Part shown: piece after piece, positions 2 through 50,929 of the stretch
How the letters are laid out: each line of letters begins with the position of its first letter
Position numbering within the stretch: the stretch's first letter is position 1
Origin: Fidelibacterota bacterium
GTDB taxonomy: Bacteria > Fidelibacterota > Marinisomatia > SCGC-AAA003-L08 > GCA-2689995
Length of the DNA stretch: 64,000 nucleotides
Assembly (NCBI GenBank): GCA_014381925.1
Contig: JACNKR010000025.1
Coordinates: 18,506-82,505 of the forward strand
Direction: 5' to 3'
Made by a program: the position numbers and the translations under genes
The notes under the pieces: generated by a model
Told to the model about the DNA's origin: nothing
Database searches by the model: none
What the model saw: only the letters and a program-made list of their open reading frames with translations

Positions 2-2095
2 ACAGCAAGTAAATTATTAATAGAATATAAAGATATCGATTCAATATTTGAAAATGCAGAATCCATAAAAAATAAAAGAGTATCTGCTGGGTTAATAAAT
101 GCCAGAGAATATTATAAAACTTCACTTAAATTGGTAACGATAGATACAAATGTACCAATCGATTCTAATATTAATAATTTAATACGAAGACCTGCAAATA
201 GCAAAAAGCTAATTAATTTAATTAGTCAATATGAATTATTTTCATTGCAAAAACAAGTTGATTTATTATTAATTGAAAAGAAAGAAAAGATAGTATCTAA
301 AAAAGTTAATAAAAATTATAAGTTAGTAAAATCAATTGATGAATTAATTTTACTATGTAAAGATATAAAAAATTCATCACTAATTGCTATTGACACAGAA
401 ACGACTTCTATAGATCCTCATTGTGCAGAATTGGTTGGAATATCAATATCTAAAAAGGAAAACACAGGGTTTTATATTCCAATAAAAGGATTAGAAACAA
501 AACAATTACTAGATATTGATTTAGTTATTGAAATATTAAATCCAATTTTAGCTAATAAATCGATTAGGAAATGTGGTCAAAATATTAAATATGATGTCAT
601 TGTTTTAAATAATGCTGGATTTGAACTAAATGGAATTTACTTTGATACTATGATCGGTGCTCATTTAATGAACACTGCAATACATGAATATAATCTTGAA
701 TTCTTAGCTCAACAATATTTGGGATATTCAATGATGCCAATATCAGAATTAATTGGAGAAGGAAAAAATCAAATAACTATGGATGAAGTTTCTATTGAGA
801 AAACCTCATTCTATGCATCTGAAGATGCAGATATAACATTTACATTATCAAAAAAGTTTGAAAGTATATTAAAAGAAGACGACGTTTTAGAATATTATAA
901 TAAAATTGATAATCCATTAATTCCTGTGTTAGTAGAAATGGAGCATGAAGGTGTATTTGTTGATTGTAAGTTTTTAAAAAAATTATCAAATGAATTAAAA
1001 CAAAAATTAGATAATAGTATTTCAGAAATTTATGATATGGCAGGACGAGAATTCAATATTAATTCACCTAAACAATTATCTGAAATTTTATTTGATGAGC
1101 TTGAGTTAAAAAAAGTTCGAAAACGAAGTACCGATGTTAGAGTTTTAGAAGTTTTAAAAAATTACCATCCTTTACCCGAGAAAATTTTAGAATATCGACA
1201 GTATAAAAAATTAAAATCAACTTATGTTGATGCATTACCTGAATATGTTAATGATAAAACAAATCGAATTCATACAAGTTGGAATCAGACAATTGCTGGA
1301 ACAGGGCGTTTATCTTCTACACAACCTAATTTTCAAAACATTCCGATAAGAACTGAATTAGGCAGAGAAGTTAGAAAAGCAATTAAACCTGAAAAAAAAG
1401 GGTGGAAACTATTATCAGCAGATTATTCTCAAATTGAGCTACGAATAATGGCTCATTTATCTGAAGAAAAGGTTTTAATTGACGCTTTTAATAATGGTGA
1501 TGATATTCATGCAAGAACAGCTTCGTTAGTTTTTAATACGAATGTTAATCACATTACTGAGGATCAACGAAGAACTGCAAAGGTTGTCAATTTTGGAATT
1601 ATGTATGGTGCTGGACCATTTCGAATGTCTCAAGAATTAGGTATTTCTATGCCAAAAGCACGGGATTTAATTGATAATTATTTTAATACATATCCAGGGA
1701 TTCGAAATTATATTGATTCTACTATTGCGAGTGCAAAAGAAAATGGATTTGTTTCTACCATTCATGGACGAAAGCGGAAAACACGATTCTTAAATTCAGG
1801 GAATAGACAGCAAGCTCAAGCAGAATCTAGAGCAATAATTAATATGCCAATACAAGGTTCTGCATCTGAATTAATCAAATTAGCAATGATAAATATTCAC
1901 TCAAAATTAAAATCTCAAAAGTTGAAATCTAAAATGATATTACAGGTTCATGATGAATTAATATTTGAATTACCTGAAAATGAATTAAATCAACTTCAAG
2001 AAATTGTGGTATTCGAAATGGAAAATGCTATGAAATTAAAGGTTCCATTAAAAGTAGATGTTGGAATTGGAAAACATTGGTATGATGCACATTAA
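2..2095 (+). CDS. polA: DNA polymerase I (5'-truncated by window edge)
   Basis: Frame is open from nt 2 (TASKLLIEYKDIDSIF, end of the 5'-3' exonuclease region). Exo I AIDTETT, motif A SADYSQIELR, motif B RRTAKVVNFGIMYG, motif C QVHDEL. Confidence 0.97.
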   Translation, partial: TASKLLIEYKDIDSIFENAESIKNKRVSAGLINAREYYKTSLKLVTIDTNVPIDSNINNLIRRPANSKKLINLISQYELFSLQKQVDLLLIEKKEKIVSKKVNKNYKLVKSIDELILLCKDIKNSSLIAIDTETTSIDPHCAELVGISISKKENTGFYIPIKGLETKQLLDIDLVIEILNPILANKSIRKCGQNIKYDVIVLNNAGFELNGIYFDTMIGAHLMNTAIHEYNLEFLAQQYLGYSMMPISELIGEGKNQITMDEVSIEKTSFYASEDADITFTLSKKFESILKEDDVLEYYNKIDNPLIPVLVEMEHEGVFVDCKFLKKLSNELKQKLDNSISEIYDMAGREFNINSPKQLSEILFDELELKKVRKRSTDVRVLEVLKNYHPLPEKILEYRQYKKLKSTYVDALPEYVNDKTNRIHTSWNQTIAGTGRLSSTQPNFQNIPIRTELGREVRKAIKPEKKGWKLLSADYSQIELRIMAHLSEEKVLIDAFNNGDDIHARTASLVFNTNVNHITEDQRRTAKVVNFGIMYGAGPFRMSQELGISMPKARDLIDNYFNTYPGIRNYIDSTIASAKENGFVSTIHGRKRKTRFLNSGNRQQAQAESRAIINMPIQGSASELIKLAMINIHSKLKSQKLKSKMILQVHDELIFELPENELNQLQEIVVFEMENAMKLKVPLKVDVGIGKHWYDAH

Positions 2096-42049: not shown

Positions 42050-42525
42050 AAAATTTCTAGCCACCTTTTATATGCATTAGTGTTTTTAGTTTGTAATAAC
42101 CTTTTTTTGATAGTTTGGCACAATTTATTTACATTTATATCATTTAGCTCATTCCTTAAACCTGATGGAGCACCATTGATACGATACGGAGAGATTCTCA
42201 GCTTTCGAATAATTTGTGAATATTCTAAATATTCATCTGTCCCCTTTTTATTTTCCATGTTTTGATTTCTAAATTTATTATTCCGAATTCGTAATTTTGC
42301 TTTTATTAAGTCCGTAACCGTATGCGATAATTGACTTGTAATATAATAAATTAAATCACAATTAGAGATTTTTTCAATATTACAATTTCTTTCAAATCCT
42401 GTATTATGAATAAGCATTGCACCGTGCTCATGAATGACATTTTCAAATTGTTCATAACTAATTTAGTCTGTTCCTCCAACTACACCTATCTTAATTCCCG
42501 TTAAATCTGTTTTTGCTTTGTTCAT
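42046..42525 (-). pseudogene. DUF2325-like Rossmann-fold protein with an in-frame TAA
   Basis: ATG at 42525 overlaps the McrC-like TGA; MNKAKTDLTGIKIGVVGGTD*ISYEQ...CDLIYYITSQLSH; TAA at 42463-42465. Confidence 0.6.
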
Positions 42526-44177
42526 TTGAGAATACCTTCTATTTCGAAAAGATTGGTTAAAAATGTGTTTAATACTTTATCAACATTGTATTCACCTTTT
42601 CCGGTATCACCATATTCTGGTCTTAATGGGAGCCAGCCTGAAGTCATTCTATAATCGCCATCAAAATGACACTGTTTTTCATAGTAATTGATTTTAGAAG
42701 TGAATTTACTCCCTTCGTATAATCCTGGGTATAATAACCAAAAATGATTTACTAAATTAATTTTAGTTCCCTCCGTAGTGACAACACCAACAGAATTATA
42801 ACTTTTTTTTATACATTTTATCATTTCAGCCACCATTTTACTTTCTGGCATATATTTAGCATCAAATATAAATATCTTTTTTATTTCTTCATTTATTTTA
42901 AAATAAATAGACAAATCTGGGGTTTTTGGCGCATCACTATCACTATTAATCAATCCGACTTTTCCATTCTCGGCACGTGGAATTTTTCTACCCATAATAA
43001 TATCAAAACTGTAGTTATGAATTTTTCCATGCATTTCAGGTTTATTTGGATTTTCTAAATATTCAATGTTAATAATATTTCTCTCTAATGAATTATAAAA
43101 TTTTATAAATAACCAGTATTCATATAATTCAGAAATTTTAGTTAAATTCCTGTCACCAATTTCTAAAACATTGGGAATTGCAAAAGAATAATCAAAATCT
43201 TTAATATTCTTTCTTATTGAGAAATAATTTTTATTATTTGATTCAATCCAAGTTGGTGGAGGGATTATTTTATTATTTTTTAGATAGTCTGGTAACTTAA
43301 AAAACTTCAAAAATAGATTGTGAATACCTTTTAAATTTTTCCTTGAAAATGCTAATTTGTCTCTTGCCTCTTTTGCATATTCTTTTTTCCCTTTTAGTTT
43401 TAAAAGCTCATCAACTTTATCAATCAATTCATCAACTTTATCAATCAAAAACGAAATGCAATGAGAAATGTTTTTCAGAGATTTTATTTCGGGTTTTATA
43501 TTGACAGATGGAACAAGTAAGGTATTTTGAATTTGAGTTTTGTAGCTATATACATTATACCCTTTTTTATAAATAGTTTTTAATATTGTAATGTTTATTT
43601 TGCTCTTTTTATTAAAGGGTTTAAAAACCATATTTGATTTAATGAAAGGTTTTCCAATGATTGATTGAATATGATATATAAACCTATCTATTAATTTTTT
43701 AAAAATAATTATTTGGTGGTCAAGTTGATTGGTCCTATTCAGTATCTGTAATAAAAAATCATGTTTTACTAATCCAATGTTTATAATATTTGGAAACAAT
43801 GTATAAATATCTTTCACCATTTGTTGGAAATGATTATTTAATATTTTAGTTGGTAAAATATAGATCTTTAAAGCAAACTTCCTTATCGTATTCTTATAAA
43901 AGACAAATTCAGTATTGCCGCTATATTCTCCATCGAAAAGTTGTCTCGTTGAATTCTCCTTCATAGGTAATGAAATCCTATTTTTTTTAGATTTATTTTC
44001 TCCTTGTCCCACCTCCCAACCGGGTGTTGATTCTTCTAAATCAAACCGAAAATAGTTTGATTGATAAAAATCGTGATCACATGAAAAACTTTGTTGATTG
44101 TTATTATCAATTTTAAATTCGATTAGCTCTTCTTTTTCTTCTCCTATTTTTTTTTTAATATATAATAAAATTTTCAT
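42522..44177 (-). CDS. McrC-like nuclease (DUF2357-type N-domain plus PD-(D/E)xK)
   Basis: LPTKI-x5-QQMVKDI, LYEYWLFIK, TPDLSI...IFDAKY, WLLYPG; directly downstream of the McrB-like gene. Confidence 0.75.
   Translation of the reverse strand: MKILLYIKKKIGEEKEELIEFKIDNNNQQSFSCDHDFYQSNYFRFDLEESTPGWEVGQGENKSKKNRISLPMKENSTRQLFDGEYSGNTEFVFYKNTIRKFALKIYILPTKILNNHFQQMVKDIYTLFPNIINIGLVKHDFLLQILNRTNQLDHQIIIFKKLIDRFIYHIQSIIGKPFIKSNMVFKPFNKKSKINITILKTIYKKGYNVYSYKTQIQNTLLVPSVNIKPEIKSLKNISHCISFLIDKVDELIDKVDELLKLKGKKEYAKEARDKLAFSRKNLKGIHNLFLKFFKLPDYLKNNKIIPPPTWIESNNKNYFSIRKNIKDFDYSFAIPNVLEIGDRNLTKISELYEYWLFIKFYNSLERNIINIEYLENPNKPEMHGKIHNYSFDIIMGRKIPRAENGKVGLINSDSDAPKTPDLSIYFKINEEIKKIFIFDAKYMPESKMVAEMIKCIKKSYNSVGVVTTEGTKINLVNHFWLLYPGLYEGSKFTSKINYYEKQCHFDGDYRMTSGWLPLRPEYGDTGKGEYNVDKVLNTFLTNLFEIEGILK
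43408..43448. repeat. 21-nt tandem duplication encoding a repeated heptad (LIDKVDE x2)
   Basis: TCATCAACTTTATCAATCAA at 43408-43427 and 43429-43448. Confidence 0.85.
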
Positions 44178-44187
44178 TAATTATTTA

Positions 44188-47100
44188 CTATCCAAAGAAA
44201 TCGAAATCTTCCATATCAAAGCCATTTTGATAAATCTGTTCAGCTTTGATAAATGAATTTCTATACAATAATTCATCATCTTCAGATCTATTTTTCATTA
44301 TACCATTTTCATCAAATGTTACCTGATTCGTTTCTTCCAGCGAACTCAATTTTTTCATAATTGTTTGCAACCTCAATTTCATCCCATCACCAAATCCTCT
44401 CAACTTTGGCAATATCCGTTGTAATATTTGAATATCTAATGCATCATTTTCATTCATCCAGTCATTTTCAGTAGCAAGTTGTACATATTTTTCAATTCCC
44501 AAAATTGTGCGTGGGCTGATAAAGAATTTTTTGCCTTTGCCTTTGTCTTTGTCTACGTCTTGAGAAAATGCTTTAACAATAGTTTTTAACTCTCCCAACC
44601 CTTCTTTTGGATTTGTTCCATCAAGAGTGGGTATTATCAATGCTTTATTATTTTTTACAGCATCATATTTCAATTCAGCACCTCTAAAATAATCACCACT
44701 ATTCCCATTCAATTCAATCAAATTAGCTCTGTCCAAAAACCGTGGGCTAAATCGCTCTACCGTTTCATCTATATTAGCCGTTCCAAAAAAGTGAGTATTC
44801 GGACGTAATTGAAGCGGATTAGGTAAAATATCTTTAAACTTAATTCCACTCAATTTATCCATATATTCCACTTTCCCAAGTTCCGAACCTGAAATTGCAG
44901 TCATAATAGTGGACATATAATATTCCGGCGTGGAAAGATTTATTTCATCTAATAATGGAGCAAAAAATAGGTTATCATTTTTATTTTTAACGGCCTCATT
45001 TGCTGCAATCAGCAAGGGTAATAAATCATTATTAGCAAATTGATAGCGATAGTTTGCAAAATTATAAAATCCAAATAATTCTGATTGGTCAAACCAATTG
45101 CGTTGCACAGATATATTACATAATCTATTTTGTTGTCCAATAGCGTGCATAAACGACTTTATTAAACTGGTTTTTCCAAATCCGGGTGGGCCAGTTAAAA
45201 TAGTCATACTTCCTGTTTGAATACAGAGCAGAAGGTTTTTTATTGTTTCAGCATCAGTTTCATAACCAATATTTTTCATTCGTTCTATAATTTCATCAAC
45301 TAATTCATCGCCTTTAAGATCTTCAGACGTATTTGAATTAAGATATTTATTGCAAACAATTCCTCTCTTTCCATCTTCGCCATACAAATATTTTTTAACT
45401 TCATCCCGATTGCCGTCGGTTGATGATTTACTTGAACCTCCGTCTCCATTCTTTCCCGGCTCACCTTTCTCACCTTTATCACCTTTAGGTCCTTGTGCTC
45501 CAGTATCGCCTTTATCACCCTGAATACCTTGATCTCCTTTGGGTCCAGTGGTTCCATCATCTCCTTTATCACCAGTATCTCCTTTTTCGCCCTTTATTGT
45601 TTCACCAAAATCTTTGTGTCCATTTAAATCTTTCCAACCTTTACTATGCCATTCTGGTTCTTCTTCATCATCTGGATTTTTCTTTGATTGTTTTTTGGTA
45701 ACTACTTTTGCCTCTTTCGATGGTGGTTTTATTTCTCCATCCTCTGGTTTCCCTTGTTTGATACCTTTTTTAGTTTTGCCATTAGGTTTATCTGCTTCAG
45801 CATAAATTGGTTCTTCAATATACTCAGCGTCAATTAAACCATTTGGGTCATATACACCCACAGTTGTTTTACTCATTCCAAAGTCAATGCCAAGGTAGAT
45901 TTCGTTGGGATCTTTTATATTTCCTTCCGATTCATCTTCAGAATTGTTGGTATTAACTTTTTGTATTGGTGGTATATCAAGGGAATTATTTTTTATCAAA
46001 TTTTTAATTTCAGTATGATTATCCATTACTTCGAAGCCTAGTTGAAATGCGATTGTATTGCCGATGGAAATACAATCAGTTATTTTAAAATCGAATTCAG
46101 GATTAGCAATGTTGTTTAGTAAATCTGAATAAATAGGAATTTCCGTACAAAAATTTTCAGATAATTGATTAAGTTTTACTTCTTTATTATTTGCATAAAT
46201 ATACACTTTAACACCATTAGTTAAATCTTCATTTGTAACATCTAATGTTGAATCTGGGATAAGATTATTCTCATTAATAAGATTTATAGTAATTCTATAA
46301 TTTCCCGCATCGTTGTTTTTATGTTTTAGTTTAAATATTTTTTCACCAATAAGCAAAAATGCATACACGCGAGTATCATAATATATACCTTGTATTTTCG
46401 CGTTTGCTTTTTCTTCTTCGGTTCTTCCAAATTTATTTTTAAATTCATTCTTTAAATATTGTGCAAGCCCTAACCCACCTAATTTTCTGTTTTTGTTATG
46501 ATTTTTTAATGTAGATGAAAGTATTTCACTATCAGAGTACCATTTTTTTAATGTGTTTTTAACTTGATCTTTCAGCCATATATTTTCGTAAAAACCACCA
46601 GTTATAAGTATTCTTGTAACTGGATTATTTTCATACTCAACATCATATTCCTCTTTGAGTTTCTTCAAGGTGTCAGACAACTCTTTATAAAATTTGTCAA
46701 ATATTTTTTTAAAGTTTTCTTCCTTTAATGGAACAGTAATTTTTTTATAAGAAAAATCTTTATAATCATCATTTTCTATTATATTTTTTTCAATTTTATC
46801 AAGTAATTTCCAATCAAATTCATCCTTTTCATCCCTGTTTTTAAAAGATCCAATTTTTCCATTATTTTTTAAATCCTCTCGGATTTTGGTATAATAATGA
46901 CTTGCACCCAATTCTATTGAGTTTACTTTTAAAGATGTTGTTTTTTGATCAGTTACTCTAATGAAAGTTGAATCAAGAGTTAATGCTCCAAAGTCAAGCA
47001 CCCAAAGTAAATCACCTTTTACTCTATCTATATTTGCATTTGGCTCATTAATAAATTGATAATAAATAGAATCAGCTTCACCTTTTATGTAATTACGAAC

Positions 47101-47646
47101 TAAATCCTCTCCAAATAACGAAAACCGATCGTTTCTCGTATTAATAGCCTTTTTAACTGCGTTCCTAATATTATCTTGAAAATTCTTATTATATTTTTTC
47201 TCTTCATCTGTTGCATTTATACCGTATTTATAATCAGGTTTTGAATAAATAATTTTTACATTTGTTTGTTTATATTGCTTATTACCTAATGCACTATTTA
47301 GAGTATCACCAATTTCTTCAAATAATTTTTCAAAATATTTTTCAGTAATAAATGGTGCAGCAAAAACATCTCCATTATCATCAATATCTACGCCTGAGTA
47401 TAGTCTAATATCTCTATTTTTATTAATTAGTTGTTTACCATCATATGTTAATTGACCTTTAAAATATCTATAAATTTGATGCGTCGAGTCTAATTGTGAT
47501 GTACTATTTAATAATGAAAACCTGTAACTATCCCTATCAATCTGATCACGAGGGGCTTTTGATAATTCACCCCTTATTATAGAATCCTTTATATTTTTTA
47601 ATTTCAACAACCCTAATTTATTTTCAAATTGGTTATTCTGATTCAT
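44188..47646 (-). CDS. Hsp70/actin-like ATPase + collagen-like linker + McrB-like AAA+ GTPase fusion (1152 aa)
   Basis: LDFGALTLDS, ITGGF, LGLAQY and later GIDFGMSKT (Hsp70-like); 17 Gly-X-Y triplets; GPPGFGKT, LLDEINLS, GTANIDET, FSPRFLDRAN (McrB-type). Confidence 0.8.
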   Translation of the reverse strand: MNQNNQFENKLGLLKLKNIKDSIIRGELSKAPRDQIDRDSYRFSLLNSTSQLDSTHQIYRYFKGQLTYDGKQLINKNRDIRLYSGVDIDDNGDVFAAPFITEKYFEKLFEEIGDTLNSALGNKQYKQTNVKIIYSKPDYKYGINATDEEKKYNKNFQDNIRNAVKKAINTRNDRFSLFGEDLVRNYIKGEADSIYYQFINEPNANIDRVKGDLLWVLDFGALTLDSTFIRVTDQKTTSLKVNSIELGASHYYTKIREDLKNNGKIGSFKNRDEKDEFDWKLLDKIEKNIIENDDYKDFSYKKITVPLKEENFKKIFDKFYKELSDTLKKLKEEYDVEYENNPVTRILITGGFYENIWLKDQVKNTLKKWYSDSEILSSTLKNHNKNRKLGGLGLAQYLKNEFKNKFGRTEEEKANAKIQGIYYDTRVYAFLLIGEKIFKLKHKNNDAGNYRITINLINENNLIPDSTLDVTNEDLTNGVKVYIYANNKEVKLNQLSENFCTEIPIYSDLLNNIANPEFDFKITDCISIGNTIAFQLGFEVMDNHTEIKNLIKNNSLDIPPIQKVNTNNSEDESEGNIKDPNEIYLGIDFGMSKTTVGVYDPNGLIDAEYIEEPIYAEADKPNGKTKKGIKQGKPEDGEIKPPSKEAKVVTKKQSKKNPDDEEEPEWHSKGWKDLNGHKDFGETIKGEKGDTGDKGDDGTTGPKGDQGIQGDKGDTGAQGPKGDKGEKGEPGKNGDGGSSKSSTDGNRDEVKKYLYGEDGKRGIVCNKYLNSNTSEDLKGDELVDEIIERMKNIGYETDAETIKNLLLCIQTGSMTILTGPPGFGKTSLIKSFMHAIGQQNRLCNISVQRNWFDQSELFGFYNFANYRYQFANNDLLPLLIAANEAVKNKNDNLFFAPLLDEINLSTPEYYMSTIMTAISGSELGKVEYMDKLSGIKFKDILPNPLQLRPNTHFFGTANIDETVERFSPRFLDRANLIELNGNSGDYFRGAELKYDAVKNNKALIIPTLDGTNPKEGLGELKTIVKAFSQDVDKDKGKGKKFFISPRTILGIEKYVQLATENDWMNENDALDIQILQRILPKLRGFGDGMKLRLQTIMKKLSSLEETNQVTFDENGIMKNRSEDDELLYRNSFIKAEQIYQNGFDMEDFDFFG
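45439..45591 (-). repeat. collagen-like (Gly-X-Y)17 coding repeat
   Basis: GEK GDT GDK GDD GTT GPK GDQ GIQ GDK GDT GAQ GPK GDK GEK GEP GKN GDG. Confidence 0.95.
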
Positions 47647-48155: not shown

Positions 48156-48566
48156 TTATATCCCAAACATTTGGTCAGAACAATTTTCACATAAATCATG
48201 TGCTTCATTTGAATAGGTTACAGGCGACCTACCACACCAATCACATTTTTCGTAGCTTTCAGACTCTATCCCTTCATTTAGCCACTTTTCAGCTTCAATT
48301 TCTGGAATTGTACTATCAACAATTTTATCGAAAATATCAAAATCTTTTTTTGTAAATGTATCTTTGTATTTATTAGAAATATGACCATTATCTGCTAACC
48401 AATTATTAATGTTATTTAAAAATTCTATAGAGTTCTTATTTTCATTATTTTTGATTAATTTATTTAATACTTCTTCTAATTTTTCAGGTGAAAGATTTGC
48501 ACTTTTCAATAACATTCGTGCACTGATTTTTCTATATTCATTTTCTTGGTTACTTACTTTTTTCAT
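48156..48566 (-). CDS. hypothetical protein with a C-terminal Cys4 zinc ribbon
   Basis: CDWC-x14-CENC; ATG 48566 overlaps the upstream TGA. Confidence 0.6.
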   Translation of the reverse strand: MKKVSNQENEYRKISARMLLKSANLSPEKLEEVLNKLIKNNENKNSIEFLNNINNWLADNGHISNKYKDTFTKKDFDIFDKIVDSTIPEIEAEKWLNEGIESESYEKCDWCGRSPVTYSNEAHDLCENCSDQMFGI

Positions 48567-49081
48567 TTTATATTCCCTTTCGTTAAATGCCAACCATCAC
48601 CATTAGGGCATTTATAAATTTTAAGTTTGATTTTTTGTTCTTTTAAAATAATAGTTTTTCTTATTTGTGCACCTTTTTTAGTAAAATATAATTCTTTAGG
48701 TTTTTTATTCCCATCTGTACAAGTAGTACAAATAATACTTGGAGTATGTCTATTTTTGGGTGATAAATGCCATTTTTTACATGTATTACATTTATAGGGT
48801 GTTAACTCTGAATCATGATCTAGTTTTAAATATTGACTATGTTCTTTCGCATTATATTTTGTATTGTATTCAGATAAAAATTCACCATAATTACTTTTAC
48901 ATGTATTACTCTTTATAATTTGTGTTTTACTTGGTGACAAATGATAGTTTTCACACTTATTGCATCTATATGGTGATAATTCCAAATTATATTTATTATT
49001 AGTATAAATAGCGGCTTCATGAGCTTCATTTTCATTTTTATAAATTGATAATGGGTTTCCTCTTTTACCAATACACTGCAA
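48563..49081 (-). CDS. protein with three tandem zinc-finger-like repeats
   Basis: Three C-x~10-Y...L-x2-Y-x-C-x2-C-x3-HL(S/T) units; the third ends CPNGDGWHLT. Confidence 0.65.
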   Translation of the reverse strand: MQCIGKRGNPLSIYKNENEAHEAAIYTNNKYNLELSPYRCNKCENYHLSPSKTQIIKSNTCKSNYGEFLSEYNTKYNAKEHSQYLKLDHDSELTPYKCNTCKKWHLSPKNRHTPSIICTTCTDGNKKPKELYFTKKGAQIRKTIILKEQKIKLKIYKCPNGDGWHLTKGNIK

Positions 49082-49089
49082 TATTATTT

Positions 49090-49305
49090 TTACCCCCCAC
49101 CCACAAAATCATCATCGTCTTCATTTAAGAATTCACTGATATCATCTTGTGCTCTTATTGGATCACCTGCATTTGTATATACAATATGATTATCTTCATA
49201 TTCATTATGACTATTATTTTCAATTGCTGAGCAAGTTTGATTTAATACATGATTGTTATATTTTTCTTTTGAAGAAAAAAGTGTGTTACACTTTGTACAT
49301 TCCAT
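49090..49305 (-). CDS. small C2HC zinc-finger-like protein with an acidic tail
   Basis: CTKCNTLFSSKEKYNNHVLNQTC; EDDDDF tail; AAGGA RBS. Confidence 0.6.
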   Translation of the reverse strand: MECTKCNTLFSSKEKYNNHVLNQTCSAIENNSHNEYEDNHIVYTNAGDPIRAQDDISEFLNEDDDDFVGGG

Positions 49306-49428
49306 TTAATTATCCTTTTTATTAAATTTGTTTATTAATTTTTTATACAATAAAAAAGCAAATATGCTAAATATGATGCCAAACATAAATCCATATATAA
49401 AAATTTCATACAGGTCAAAGAATAACAA
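49306..49428 (-). CDS. 40-aa single-TM peptide (not in ORF track)
   Basis: TTG directly after the upstream TAA, AAGGA 10 nt upstream; MLFFDLYEIFIYGFMFGIIFSIFAFLLYKKLINKFNKKDN; its TAA abuts the next ATG. Confidence 0.5.
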   Translation of the reverse strand: MLFFDLYEIFIYGFMFGIIFSIFAFLLYKKLINKFNKKDN

Positions 49429-49767
49429 TTATACATTATCCTTATTTTTTATTTCCTTAATTAATAAATGTGCGGATTCTAATAATCTACCTGGTAATTG
49501 GATTACGGTAACTAAAACATTACTTGAAAATAAAAAAACATATCCATTAAATAAGCTAAATCTAGTAATTCCGCCTCCTGTGAATTTATTTCGATGTCTT
49601 AATTCATCGATATGTTTTCTAATTTTTCCTTTTACTAATGAATGATGAATCCCTTCATTCCATGCTTTTTCAGCTGTTTTTTGATGATTTTTACAAATTC
49701 GCTGCTTAATCCTTTTTTTTGCGTGTCTTGAAACTATAATCTCATCTATTGGATTTAAATATGGCAA
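49429..49767 (-). CDS. phage-type basic protein, BECR/DUF4258-like fold suspected
   Basis: IVSRHAKKRIKQR N-terminal motif and YVFLF-x3-VLVTVI C-terminal strands. Confidence 0.45.
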   Translation of the reverse strand: MPYLNPIDEIIVSRHAKKRIKQRICKNHQKTAEKAWNEGIHHSLVKGKIRKHIDELRHRNKFTGGGITRFSLFNGYVFLFSSNVLVTVIQLPGRLLESAHLLIKEIKNKDNV

Positions 49768-49774
49768 ATTATTT

Positions 49775-50583
49775 TTAACCTTTTTTCTTTAAATCAACAA
49801 TCTCGACCATTGCATTTGCTCCAAAAATAGCTTGATGTCCTTCCATAGTTGTTGAAAAAGGGAGATCTGAATATGGTTTAATTGCATCTGCAGTTGGATT
49901 CATATCAACTAATAAATGATAGGCAATTCCTGCACAAGTACCAGCTACAAACCCAGTTGTTAATTCTTTGTTTTTCAATTTTAGTTTATCCCAAAATGGG
50001 TCATGATTCTTGGGGAGATTTTTATGCACAATATTAACTAGCCCCACTAACGAAAATGCGACAGTTTCAATTATTAATGCAGGAAGAAGGGAGTGGGTGA
50101 ATATGGACCGATGCCTTCCAATCCCAACTTTTAAATCAGTATCAGGTATTCCACCATCGCCATCAAATCCACCACTACCAATTAAAAAACCAATAAATAT
50201 AACAAATAATTTTGGTGCATATTCTTTTGGGTTTGAAAATAAATTTGATATAATTATTTTTAAGAAATTGAAACTTGATTCAGATAATTTAACTATATTT
50301 CCTCTTGCTGAATTCCCCTGTTAATAATGTGTGTTTTTAATTTATTTTGCTGAATTGCTTTTATAGTATTGGATGTTTCTGAAGCAGTAAATTTTATAAA
50401 ACCCTCAATTGCCTTTAATAAACCTTTTGCTCTCCGTCCAGCTAATTTTAGAAATAAGATTCCAGATTCTTTACCCCATGATTTTAATTCTTCAGACGAT
50501 GTTTTATTAATTGCTCGTCTTATTTCTTCATATAGATTATCAATTCGAGTTTTTTTTATTTTAATAACTAATTCATTTTCCAT
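49775..50583 (-). pseudogene. YdjM-like membrane metal-dependent hydrolase, frameshifted
   Basis: Downstream frame is open from 50320 without a start (GDGGIPDTD, HRSIFTHS, YHLLVD) and overlaps the end of track ORF 50293-50583; 809 nt = 270 codons - 1. Confidence 0.65.
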
Positions 50584-50593
50584 TTATTTTCCA

Positions 50594-50929
50594 TTAAATT
50601 TCTTTTAATATAGATTTAATAATAATATATTTTTGCTCACAAAATTCATGGACACCACATTGATTAATCCATTCTTTATATTTTCGTCTTTCAATATCAT
50701 CATCCTGACGAAGTAAAATGAGTTCTCTATTTTTGAAAATAAATCCAATTTTAAGTACTTTAAGAATTTCAATCATTAAATATTTTGAACGAGTTTGCAT
50801 ATTACGATTAAAGAATTTTGATATTGTTGATTTATGTCTTTTTACAAGGTCTGCTAACTCTTTACGGCAAATTCCCTGTTCAAGCATTTTCTCCTCTATG
50901 ACAGTAATTATATCTTGGTCTTTATTCAT
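50594..50929 (-). CDS. XRE/Cro-family HTH regulator
   Basis: QGICRKELADLVKRHKSTISKFFN. Confidence 0.75.
   Translation of the reverse strand: MNKDQDIITVIEEKMLEQGICRKELADLVKRHKSTISKFFNRNMQTRSKYLMIEILKVLKIGFIFKNRELILLRQDDDIERRKYKEWINQCGVHEFCEQKYIIIKSILKEI

Follow-up and report, generated by a model that had tools for sequence, protein, structure and literature searches.

The window analysed here, a 64,000-nucleotide (nt) stretch of contig JACNKR010000025.1 from a Fidelibacterota bacterium, contains two adjacent genes, designated as gene B and gene C, which constitute a real, intact and selectively maintained McrBC-like module of the NxD type with a sensor region resembling Hsp70 and a collagen-like spacer that is lineage-specific. 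The gene B product is arranged as an Hsp70-like region, a variable region, a conserved segment, a charged and collagen-like linker, and an McrB-like NxD GTPase, and gene C encodes its McrC-like partner (Table 1). Probably, the pair represents a two-gene McrBC-like, that is type IV restriction-like, defence module located on a phage-derived or otherwise mobile island of a low-GC (guanine-cytosine) uncultured bacterium.

An earlier note on this DNA had described an intact 1152-amino acid (aa) protein followed 10 nt later by an intact 551-aa protein, and both open reading frames (ORFs) and the gap were confirmed: genes B and C are read from the same strand and are separated by exactly 10 nt (TAG, TAAATAATTA, ATG), in a window with a GC content of 27–30%. 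Gene C is situated directly downstream of gene B, as expected for McrC, and the order is alike in the only close relative found, a 4.8-kb metagenome contig from ENA (L004). The 5.1-kb stretch of both genes was 100% identical between independently assembled contigs obtained from two sequencing runs, and the identical gene B protein was recorded on 8 contigs. Since this identity extends across independent contigs, the fusion, including its collagen segment, is not an assembly chimera.

All motifs named in the earlier note are present, namely the Walker A motif GPPGFGKT (819–826, of the GxxGxGK[ST] form), LLDEINLS (898–905, containing the Walker B motif LLDEIN 898–903 of the hhhhDE form) and GTANIDET (955–962), as well as GIDFG (D588) in the N-terminal half and FDAKY (D439/K441) in gene C; the additional motif FLDRANLIEL occupies residues 970–979. 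The shortened N-x-D signature is evident from the alignment of GTANIDET with NMDE, NIDE, and NQDE of CnuB and plasmid homologues, in contrast to NTAD of E. coli McrB. Pfam gave weak AAA matches for this domain (AAA_5, 19.9 bits, below cut-off), and the PADLOC profile PDC-M26A matched residues 782–912 with E 3e-21. When a profile of five GTPase sequences was compared with the PDB, E. coli McrB (6hz4, E 1.5e-5 over 168 aa; also 6ut6 and 6ut3) and T. gammatolerans McrB were matched, and McrB chains were the best and longest single-domain matches spanning the AAA+ core. The overall E-value of midasin was lower, but only through the sum of six weak partial AAA repeats, and no MoxR/RavA chain appeared in this search at E<1. 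According to the PDB matches, the alignment, and the tree described below, the AAA domain is McrB-like, of the NxD clade, and not MoxR- or dynein-like.

The few database relatives of the GTPase are McrB-like as well, including P0002 and P0003 (GTVNIDES) and P0005 (EVE + AAA_5), while tblastn against plasmids returned 289–324 records with a best E of 1e-27; a genome scan with the GTPase domain as a query returned solely a Lon protease, which is a false positive. In seven of nine relatives checked, the protein encoded after the GTPase has a match or annotation for DUF2357 and/or PDDEXK_7; the Klebsiella and A. baumannii partners gave no Pfam match. In an alignment of 13 sequences (gene B, the L004 relative, plasmid homologues, CnuB, and E. 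coli McrB) the gene B, L004, plasmid, and CnuB sequences have in common N-x-D, W-x4-(D/E)L(L/F)G(Y/F), DE-x-NL-x2-E-x-Y, and (F/V)LDRA, and the NTAD of E. coli McrB has different flanks. A small neighbour-joining (NJ) tree rooted on E. coli McrB, which contains no members of the published Hsp70-McrB group, placed the gene B and L004 GTPases as sister to a clade from Klebsiella, Acinetobacter, and Citrobacter plasmids in 99 of 100 bootstraps. The idea that the N-termini of this plasmid clade are also Hsp70-like was rejected; in them a globular domain precedes a long coiled coil, as judged from the alignment and a TPR_MLP1_2 match.

This plasmid clade of NxD McrB-like proteins deserves mention in its own right. 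Its members (L011 on Klebsiella plasmid NZ_CP107354.1, L012, L018, and L019) are 840–890 aa long with a globular domain, long coiled coil, and GTPase; their partners measure 570–900 aa, and those of Citrobacter and A. indicus carry DUF2357. They occur frequently on plasmids of clinical Klebsiella, Citrobacter, and Acinetobacter, with about 160 Klebsiella records, and are annotated in RefSeq merely as "AAA family ATPase" or "hypothetical". One member adjoins a cytosine methyltransferase, Vsr, and an MvaI/BcnI endonuclease, and another precedes a UvrD helicase.

The homology of the nuclease half of gene C to McrC-like partners is established. With a profile built from eight McrC-like partners of NxD GTPases, hhalign aligned residues 292–486 at a probability of 92% and E 5e-7; the Pfam PDDEXK_7 match was sub-threshold (E 1.1e-3, 19.5 bits versus a cut-off of 22.1 bits). 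Compared with E. coli McrC the motif pairs are SELYEYW/SLLYQKF, PD421LSI/TDITI, and FD439AK441/VDAKY, so that the D...(D/E)xK catalytic pattern is intact and the PD-(D/E)xK endonuclease is apparently active. BLAST and tblastn searches with gene C (plasmids, phages) gave no match, and hhalign against single McrC sequences was not significant. A perfect 20-nt repeat with 21-nt spacing inside the gene (43408–43448) doubles the peptide IDKVDEL at residues 245–258, which is present in a single copy in the L004 homologue. The McrBC-type pair proposed in the earlier note, an NxD-type McrB GTPase with a PD-(D/E)xK partner, was thus borne out by profile, alignment, and partner-profile evidence.

Selective maintenance of the pair becomes apparent from the comparison with L004, where a zinc-ribbon ORF, the fusion gene, and the McrC-like gene follow one another as in the window. 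The L004 fusion gene seems to be split merely through a 10-N scaffold gap; when the corresponding 47 nt of the window are inserted, the frame is continuous and encodes about 1074 aa. The GTPase domains are 83% identical overall (66–98% by segment), with a ratio of nonsynonymous to synonymous substitutions (dN/dS) of 0.20 at dS 0.48, and the gene C products are 71% identical with dN/dS 0.35 at dS 0.54; both motor and nuclease evolve under purifying selection. With only 36% identity against 83% for the GTPase, the sensor behaves differently: residues 1–400 show 30–55% identity (dN/dS 0.58, dS 1.06), residues 400–550 show 18–27% identity (dN/dS 0.72, with dS saturated at 1.25), and the linker 650–790 is unalignable. 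The sensor half and the linker therefore have a different, much deeper or faster history than the motor and nuclease, which is the pattern expected for an exchangeable specificity module.

The N-terminal region was examined by hhalign, in which the alignment of the window and L004 sequences was compared with E. coli DnaK and HscA, and 150 column shuffles served as the null. Residues 197–415 aligned with DnaK/HscA 167–388, which is lobe II of the Hsp70 nucleotide-binding domain (NBD), with a score of 30.0 (P 0.003). None of the 150 shuffles reached this value (mean 13.4, sd 2.2, maximum 21.3), and control templates scored 14.9 (reversed), 16.4 (FtsA), and 14.6 (MreB). Five motifs are found in register with DnaK (Table 1). 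HMMER added weak hints of an actin fold (Pfam MreB-like_C, E 0.022; NCBIfam MamK, E 0.024) and gave no HSP70 family match in gene B. The assignment of residues 197–415 as an Hsp70-like lobe II is good, though not conclusive, and the Hsp70-like motifs claimed in the earlier note hold for this part, the remainder of the region having no statistical support. The N-terminal LGLLKLKN (11–18) would be a degenerate phosphate-1 loop. A degenerate first and conserved second phosphate loop fits the published description of Hsp70 units fused to NxD McrB (PMC11090510).

Residues 416–575 may serve in target recognition, and a beta domain resembling that of the Hsp70 substrate-binding domain (SBD) may begin within them (FQLGFEVMDN, 534–543). 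The following residues 576–650 resemble either the phosphate-1 (P1) hairpin of Hsp70 or SBD-beta strands (DxNGxL...A.DK..GK), with hhalign P 0.007–0.013 against the P1 and phosphate-2 (P2) loops of DnaK, and the stretch IYLGIDFGMSKT that contains D588 aligned about equally weakly to both loops. Residues 517–638 are in turn collinear with the SBD-beta of DnaK (386–507) in the register LIKNN..IP / LIAKNTTIP and DPNGLI...AEADKPNGK / DADGIL..AKDKNSGK, at a score of 13.9 that was reached by 10 of 150 shuffles and is not significant. D588 had previously been assigned to an Hsp70 phosphate-1 loop; the motif GIDFG is indeed there, but it may instead belong to an SBD-like beta segment, and neither assignment is significant. 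The variant in which residues 583–600 form the P1 loop of a circularly permuted NBD was dropped, being inseparable from the SBD-beta reading with neither significant. Placing residues ~517–638 and D588 in an SBD-like beta segment, likewise not significant, is preferred because it requires no circular permutation. The near-100% DNA identity of residues 576–650 to L004 was also considered as a mark of a special element and rejected; it is not clearly above the 81–97% of adjacent GTPase segments, and these residues are therefore treated as the start of the conserved module.

The collagen-like segment between the sensor and the GTPase is real. It scored 32.9 bits against the Pfam Collagen cut-off of 27.2 bits (PF01391, E 5.6e-8), PDB collagen chains matched it at E of about 1e-8 to 2.7e-8, and no other run of at least 8 G-X-Y triplets occurs in any frame of the window; the collagen linker of the earlier note was accordingly upheld. 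The segment, of 18 triplets, contains much Asp and Lys but little Pro, similar to collagen-like proteins of bacteria and phages. Foreign origin of this DNA was rejected: the GC content at third codon positions (GC3) is 0.185, the same as in the remainder of gene B (0.20), so that the segment was not recently imported, and its raised overall GC comes from the amino-acid composition. A long coiled coil was not seen in the linker 651–789 by inspection or as a Pfam coiled-coil-type match, with no dedicated coiled-coil predictor run. The segment occupies the same position as the coiled coil of the nearest sampled GTPase relatives, which agrees with the proposal that collagen replaces the coiled coil; it is absent from L004. 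A literature search found nothing on collagen-like segments in McrBC systems, nor on PDC-M26.

If E. coli McrBC is taken as the model, the GTPase would form a nucleotide-dependent hexamer, and the gene C product, composed of an McrC-like adaptor and the apparently active PD-(D/E)xK endonuclease, would bind this hexamer and stimulate hydrolysis. The motor would be the McrB-like AAA+ GTPase of the NxD clade, and the sensor the orphan N-terminal region, the second half of which is an Hsp70-like ATPase lobe continuing into a hypervariable part; this region would decide when or on what the complex acts. The nuclease would then cut nucleic acid, most likely DNA, because the catalytic residues of gene C are intact. 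Assembly, trigger, substrate, and a defence function are all suggested by comparison with the known systems, and sensing of phage protein or RNA by the Hsp70 module, as the earlier note had it, is pure inference. If a triple helix forms, the collagen segment, that is the 18 collagen-like triplets within the charged linker that would serve as a spacer, may bundle the sensor arms in threes. An extended version of this scheme is unlikely: an intracellular collagen triple helix would gather the Hsp70-like arms of the hexameric ring into two trimers, taking the role of a coiled coil, with the sensor as an exchangeable cassette joined at ~576–650. If true, it would be a previously unseen build of a defence NTPase, with a collagen stalk, an orphan Hsp70-derived sensor, and swappable specificity.

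Several observations weigh against the defence-module interpretation or against parts of it. Neither residues 1–196 (lobe I) nor residues 416–582 gave a significant match. An exhaustive phmmer search with residues 1–640 against 1.84 billion representatives returned 0 matches, a weak negative because the protein itself and the known L004 relative were also not returned. AlphaFold2 models were unusable, with a predicted local distance difference test (pLDDT) of 31 for a single-sequence run on the N-terminal 640 aa and of 38 for the GTPase domain with a 5-sequence alignment. The L004 linker is rich in Lys and Glu and has no G-X-Y repeat; the collagen segment is thus lineage-specific, not a conserved part of the design, and may be just a flexible linker. 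In gene C no Pfam match to DUF2357 was obtained at E<=1. The N-terminal ~290 aa are situated where DUF2357 would be, and residues 79–132 are collinear with the start of DUF2357 of the partners, but at hhalign P 0.076 this is not significant; of the DUF2357/PD-(D/E)xK partner predicted in the earlier note, the nuclease was confirmed and DUF2357 was not. To our knowledge no NxD McrB has been characterised experimentally. Word-index searches with the full protein and the N-terminal 640 aa also gave almost nothing and have little weight, since the Lys/Asn-rich composition overfilled the limit of 8000 candidates and the N-terminal query missed even its own protein, and scans of metagenome and viral collections for the N-terminal motifs, including back-translated patterns, gave no match.

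A rival explanation is an ordinary DNA-targeting McrBC variant, in which the N-terminal 650 aa are a DNA or modification reader superficially recalling Hsp70 and the Gly-rich part is a disordered spacer without a triple helix. The nuclease has kept its catalytic residues, like DNA-cutting McrC, the Hsp70 signal covers only about one third of the N-terminal region at modest significance and without an HMMER family match, and the L004 relative has no collagen. This explanation is nevertheless rather unlikely: lobe II is collinear over five Hsp70 motifs and beats 150 of 150 shuffles, Hsp70-McrB fusions are a documented class (PMC11090510), and Pfam detected in gene B none of the known McrB DNA-reader domains (EVE, DUF3578 and similar).

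Improbable, too, is a system of the CoCoNuT type that is directed at RNA or causes abortive infection, in which the Hsp70-like unit binds aberrant or viral RNA or ribosomes and the system acts on RNA or kills the cell instead of restricting DNA. Neither in nor beside the pair was a HEPN or any other RNase found, nor a cold-shock, YTH, or SmpB-like domain or a UPF1-like helicase; gene B has no long coiled coil, and the gene C nuclease is not inactivated, unlike in type II/III CoCoNuTs (PMC11090510), even though RNA binding has been proposed for the degenerate Hsp70 units of NxD systems (PMC11090510) and the GTPase is sister to coiled-coil NxD proteins of gammaproteobacterial plasmids. That the pair is decaying or has lost its function, as a remnant carried by a degraded mobile element, is very unlikely. 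The neighbouring helicase-exonuclease is split in two ORFs where its relatives have one, the island is composed of small phage-like ORFs, and the gene B family is extremely rare; against this, both ORFs are intact over 5.1 kb of AT-rich DNA, in which stops readily occur, independent samples carry identical copies, the diverged L004 relative is also open once its scaffold gap is allowed for, and dN/dS is 0.20–0.35 for the motor and nuclease. The McrBC-like defence module remains the favoured interpretation of the pair.

Table 1. Features of genes B and C and of the bordering genes; residues refer to gene B unless stated otherwise.
Feature	Residues	DNA positions	Strand	Remarks
Gene B	1-1152	44188-47646	minus	Intact ORF, 1152 aa, without internal stop
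Gene C	1-551 (gene C)	42522-44177	minus	Intact ORF, 551 aa, McrC-like partner
Putative Hsp70/actin-like (ASKHA) nucleotide-binding domain	1-415	46402-47646	minus	Supported for 197-415 (DNA 46402-47058)
Lobe II motif FINEPNAN	198-205			In register, FINEP vs DnaK IINEP
Lobe II motif LDFGALTLDS	217-226			In register, LDFGALTLD vs DnaK YDLGGGTFD
Lobe II motif ELGASHYY	245-252			In register, vs DnaK HLGGEDFD
Lobe II motif ILITGGF	346-352			In register, vs DnaK ILVGGQT
Lobe II motif NRKLGGLGLAQY	386-397			In register, C-terminal glycine-rich connector vs DnaK connector after adenosine motif
Hypervariable region	416-575	45922-46401	minus	18-27% identical to L004
Conserved segment NEIYLGIDFGMSKTTVGVYDPNGLI...AEADKPNGKTKKGIKQGKPEDGE	576-650	45697-45921	minus	About 93-100% DNA identity to L004 where alignable
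Charged linker flanks	651-685 and 740-789		minus	Either side of collagen segment
Collagen-like segment	686-739	45430-45591	minus	18 uninterrupted G-X-Y triplets, Pfam PF01391
McrB-like AAA+ GTPase, NxD type	~790-1152 (C-terminal ~360 aa)	44191-45279	minus	Profile, tblastn, alignment, tree
PD-(D/E)xK nuclease	~292-486 (gene C)		minus	E353, D421, D439-A-K441; hhalign
Zinc-ribbon protein, 145 aa		48156-48593	minus	C-terminal C-x2-C-x16-C-x2-C; upstream of gene B
Flagellin-like protein, 459 aa		37783-39162	plus	Flagellin N- and C-terminal Pfam domains, long central insert; borders island on one side

The pair is located in a stretch of ~11.6 kb (~39.5–51.2 kb) between a mannose-1-phosphate guanylyltransferase-like gene and the flagellin-like gene. 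A zinc-ribbon ORF is also found upstream of the fusion gene in L004 (74–355), where it ends 16 nt before that gene, and the zinc-ribbon parts of both proteins are 61% identical over 33 aa; the product could be an accessory protein, either a third component or a regulator. It belongs to a run of small ORFs upstream of the system on the same strand (48156–50929, minus), among which are a 172-aa protein with repeated C-x2-C...H zinc-knuckle-like motifs (phrog_15216, E 1.4e-12), a 112-aa protein (phrog_16724, E 2.9e-10), and a 111-aa protein that is HTH (helix-turn-helix) repressor-like. These small ORFs suggest a phage-derived or mobile island. Neither flanking att-like repeats nor tRNA genes were found around the island, and promoter and terminator scans and a direct-repeat search were uninformative in the AT-rich DNA.

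Downstream of the pair are a 123-aa orphan ORF and a UvrD-type helicase of superfamily 1 (SF1) with an inserted DEDDh (RNase_T) 3'-5' exonuclease (39548–42064, minus), which is distributed over two ORFs of 415 and 420 aa in different frames with a junction near 40810–40817. In Chryseobacterium and Prevotella the relatives of the helicase are each encoded by one ORF of 859–899 aa; here the gene either has been frameshifted into a pseudogene or is naturally split. The best PADLOC matches of the helicase are the RTasHel and GajB-like models. A UvrD-type helicase also follows McrC in a Citrobacter plasmid relative, but the two helicases share generic motifs only; no evidence tying the helicase to the McrBC-like system was found. 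Farther away, at 33963–34604 (plus), a 103-aa cysteine-rich putative membrane protein (ending ...GKCCCCSCCTPDSNCCNKSK) is encoded directly upstream of an ArsR/SmtB-type HTH regulator that starts with MGSCCGKS and ends with CC, and this pair may be metal-sensing.

McrBC systems of the NxD type, including Hsp70-bearing ones, are abundant in genomes. The locus described here is compact: it consists of two genes, its nuclease is apparently active, and the accessory RNases and helicases that complicate CoCoNuTs are missing. It is therefore a tractable test case for NxD McrBC. In addition L004 provides a natural comparison, as its motor and nuclease are ~70–85% identical but its sensor differs and its linker is not collagen-like. 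A collagen-like segment within a cytoplasmic AAA+ protein would be unusual and offers a route to ask if trimerising the arms of a hexamer matters. The value of the locus is limited because the general architecture is published, the collagen segment is lineage-specific, and the functional statements are all inferred.

Among the known systems E. coli McrBC (EcoKMcrBC, 6HZ4/6UT6) shares with the pair the B-then-C order, the AAA+ GTPase core, and the McrC motifs LY(E/Q) and D...DAK; however, GTPase identity is 13%, gene B has the N-x-D signature where E. coli has NTAD, a 5-methylcytosine (5mC) reader of DUF3578 type is absent from gene B, and gene C is 200 aa longer. The collagen-like proteins Scl1/Scl2, BclA, Lcl, and phage tail fibres have the same uninterrupted, charged, and Pro-poor G-X-Y repeats, and the NCBIfam families Lcl, SclA, and SclB match gene B at E of about 6e-9, but its scores are far below the family cut-offs and it is not a member; these proteins are secreted or surface-located with tens of triplets and a trimerisation domain, whereas gene B contains an internal 18-triplet segment in a presumably cytoplasmic NTPase. 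The match of the GTPase core to PDC-M26A of PADLOC is level with that of the plasmid clade; it covers only profile positions ~302–423 of 724, no PDC-M26 partner model matches gene C, and the profile fits a Synechocystis FtsB-like (CoCoPALM-type) protein and P0002 far better (E 1e-42 to 1e-44).

Closer are the CoCoNuT and CoCoNuT-like systems (CnuB-CnuC) and the plasmid pairs of Klebsiella, Acinetobacter, and Citrobacter. They share with gene B the NxD motifs W-x4-DLLG, DE-x-NL-x2-E-x-Y, and LDRA, a GTPase identity of ~30% along with the 99/100 sister grouping, an extended spacer directly N-terminal to the GTPase, and an McrC partner larger than the canonical one. In contrast to CoCoNuTs, gene B has a collagen-like and charged linker instead of the long coiled coil, the gene C nuclease looks active, and the helicase in the neighbourhood belongs to the UvrD type, with a DEDDh insert, and is not UPF1-like. 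Pfam, PADLOC, and PHROGs revealed no tandem second nuclease (HEPN or other), cold-shock domain (CSD), RNA-binding domains, CnuH helicase, or CARF regulator in B, C, or the neighbours. The locus is not a CoCoNuT, as judged from the lack of a long coiled coil (by inspection and Pfam), of a second nuclease, and of RNA-binding domains.

The nearest counterpart is the Hsp70-McrB group described by Bell et al. 2024 (eLife 13:RP94800, PMC11090510) in the McrBC census that defined the NxD branch. In that study fusions of Hsp70-like NBD/SBD units to NxD McrB GTPases were catalogued as the deepest-branching NxD group, with degenerate Walker A-like and conserved Walker B-like motifs in the Hsp70 units. 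The architecture was thus already catalogued in 2024, and the claim of top novelty in the earlier note was too strong. Gene B is alike in having a putative Hsp70-like unit N-terminal to an NxD GTPase, an adjoining McrC homologue and, by description, a degenerate first phosphate ("Walker A-like") loop with a better conserved second one. It differs in that the collagen G-X-Y repeat is placed between sensor and GTPase ("collagen" has zero occurrences in PMC11090510), in that its N-terminal 640 aa have no sequence-detectable relative (a weak negative), and in that its GTPase groups with coiled-coil plasmid proteins, in a tree without members of the published group. Compared with this group, only the collagen spacer and the orphan N-terminal sensor appear new.

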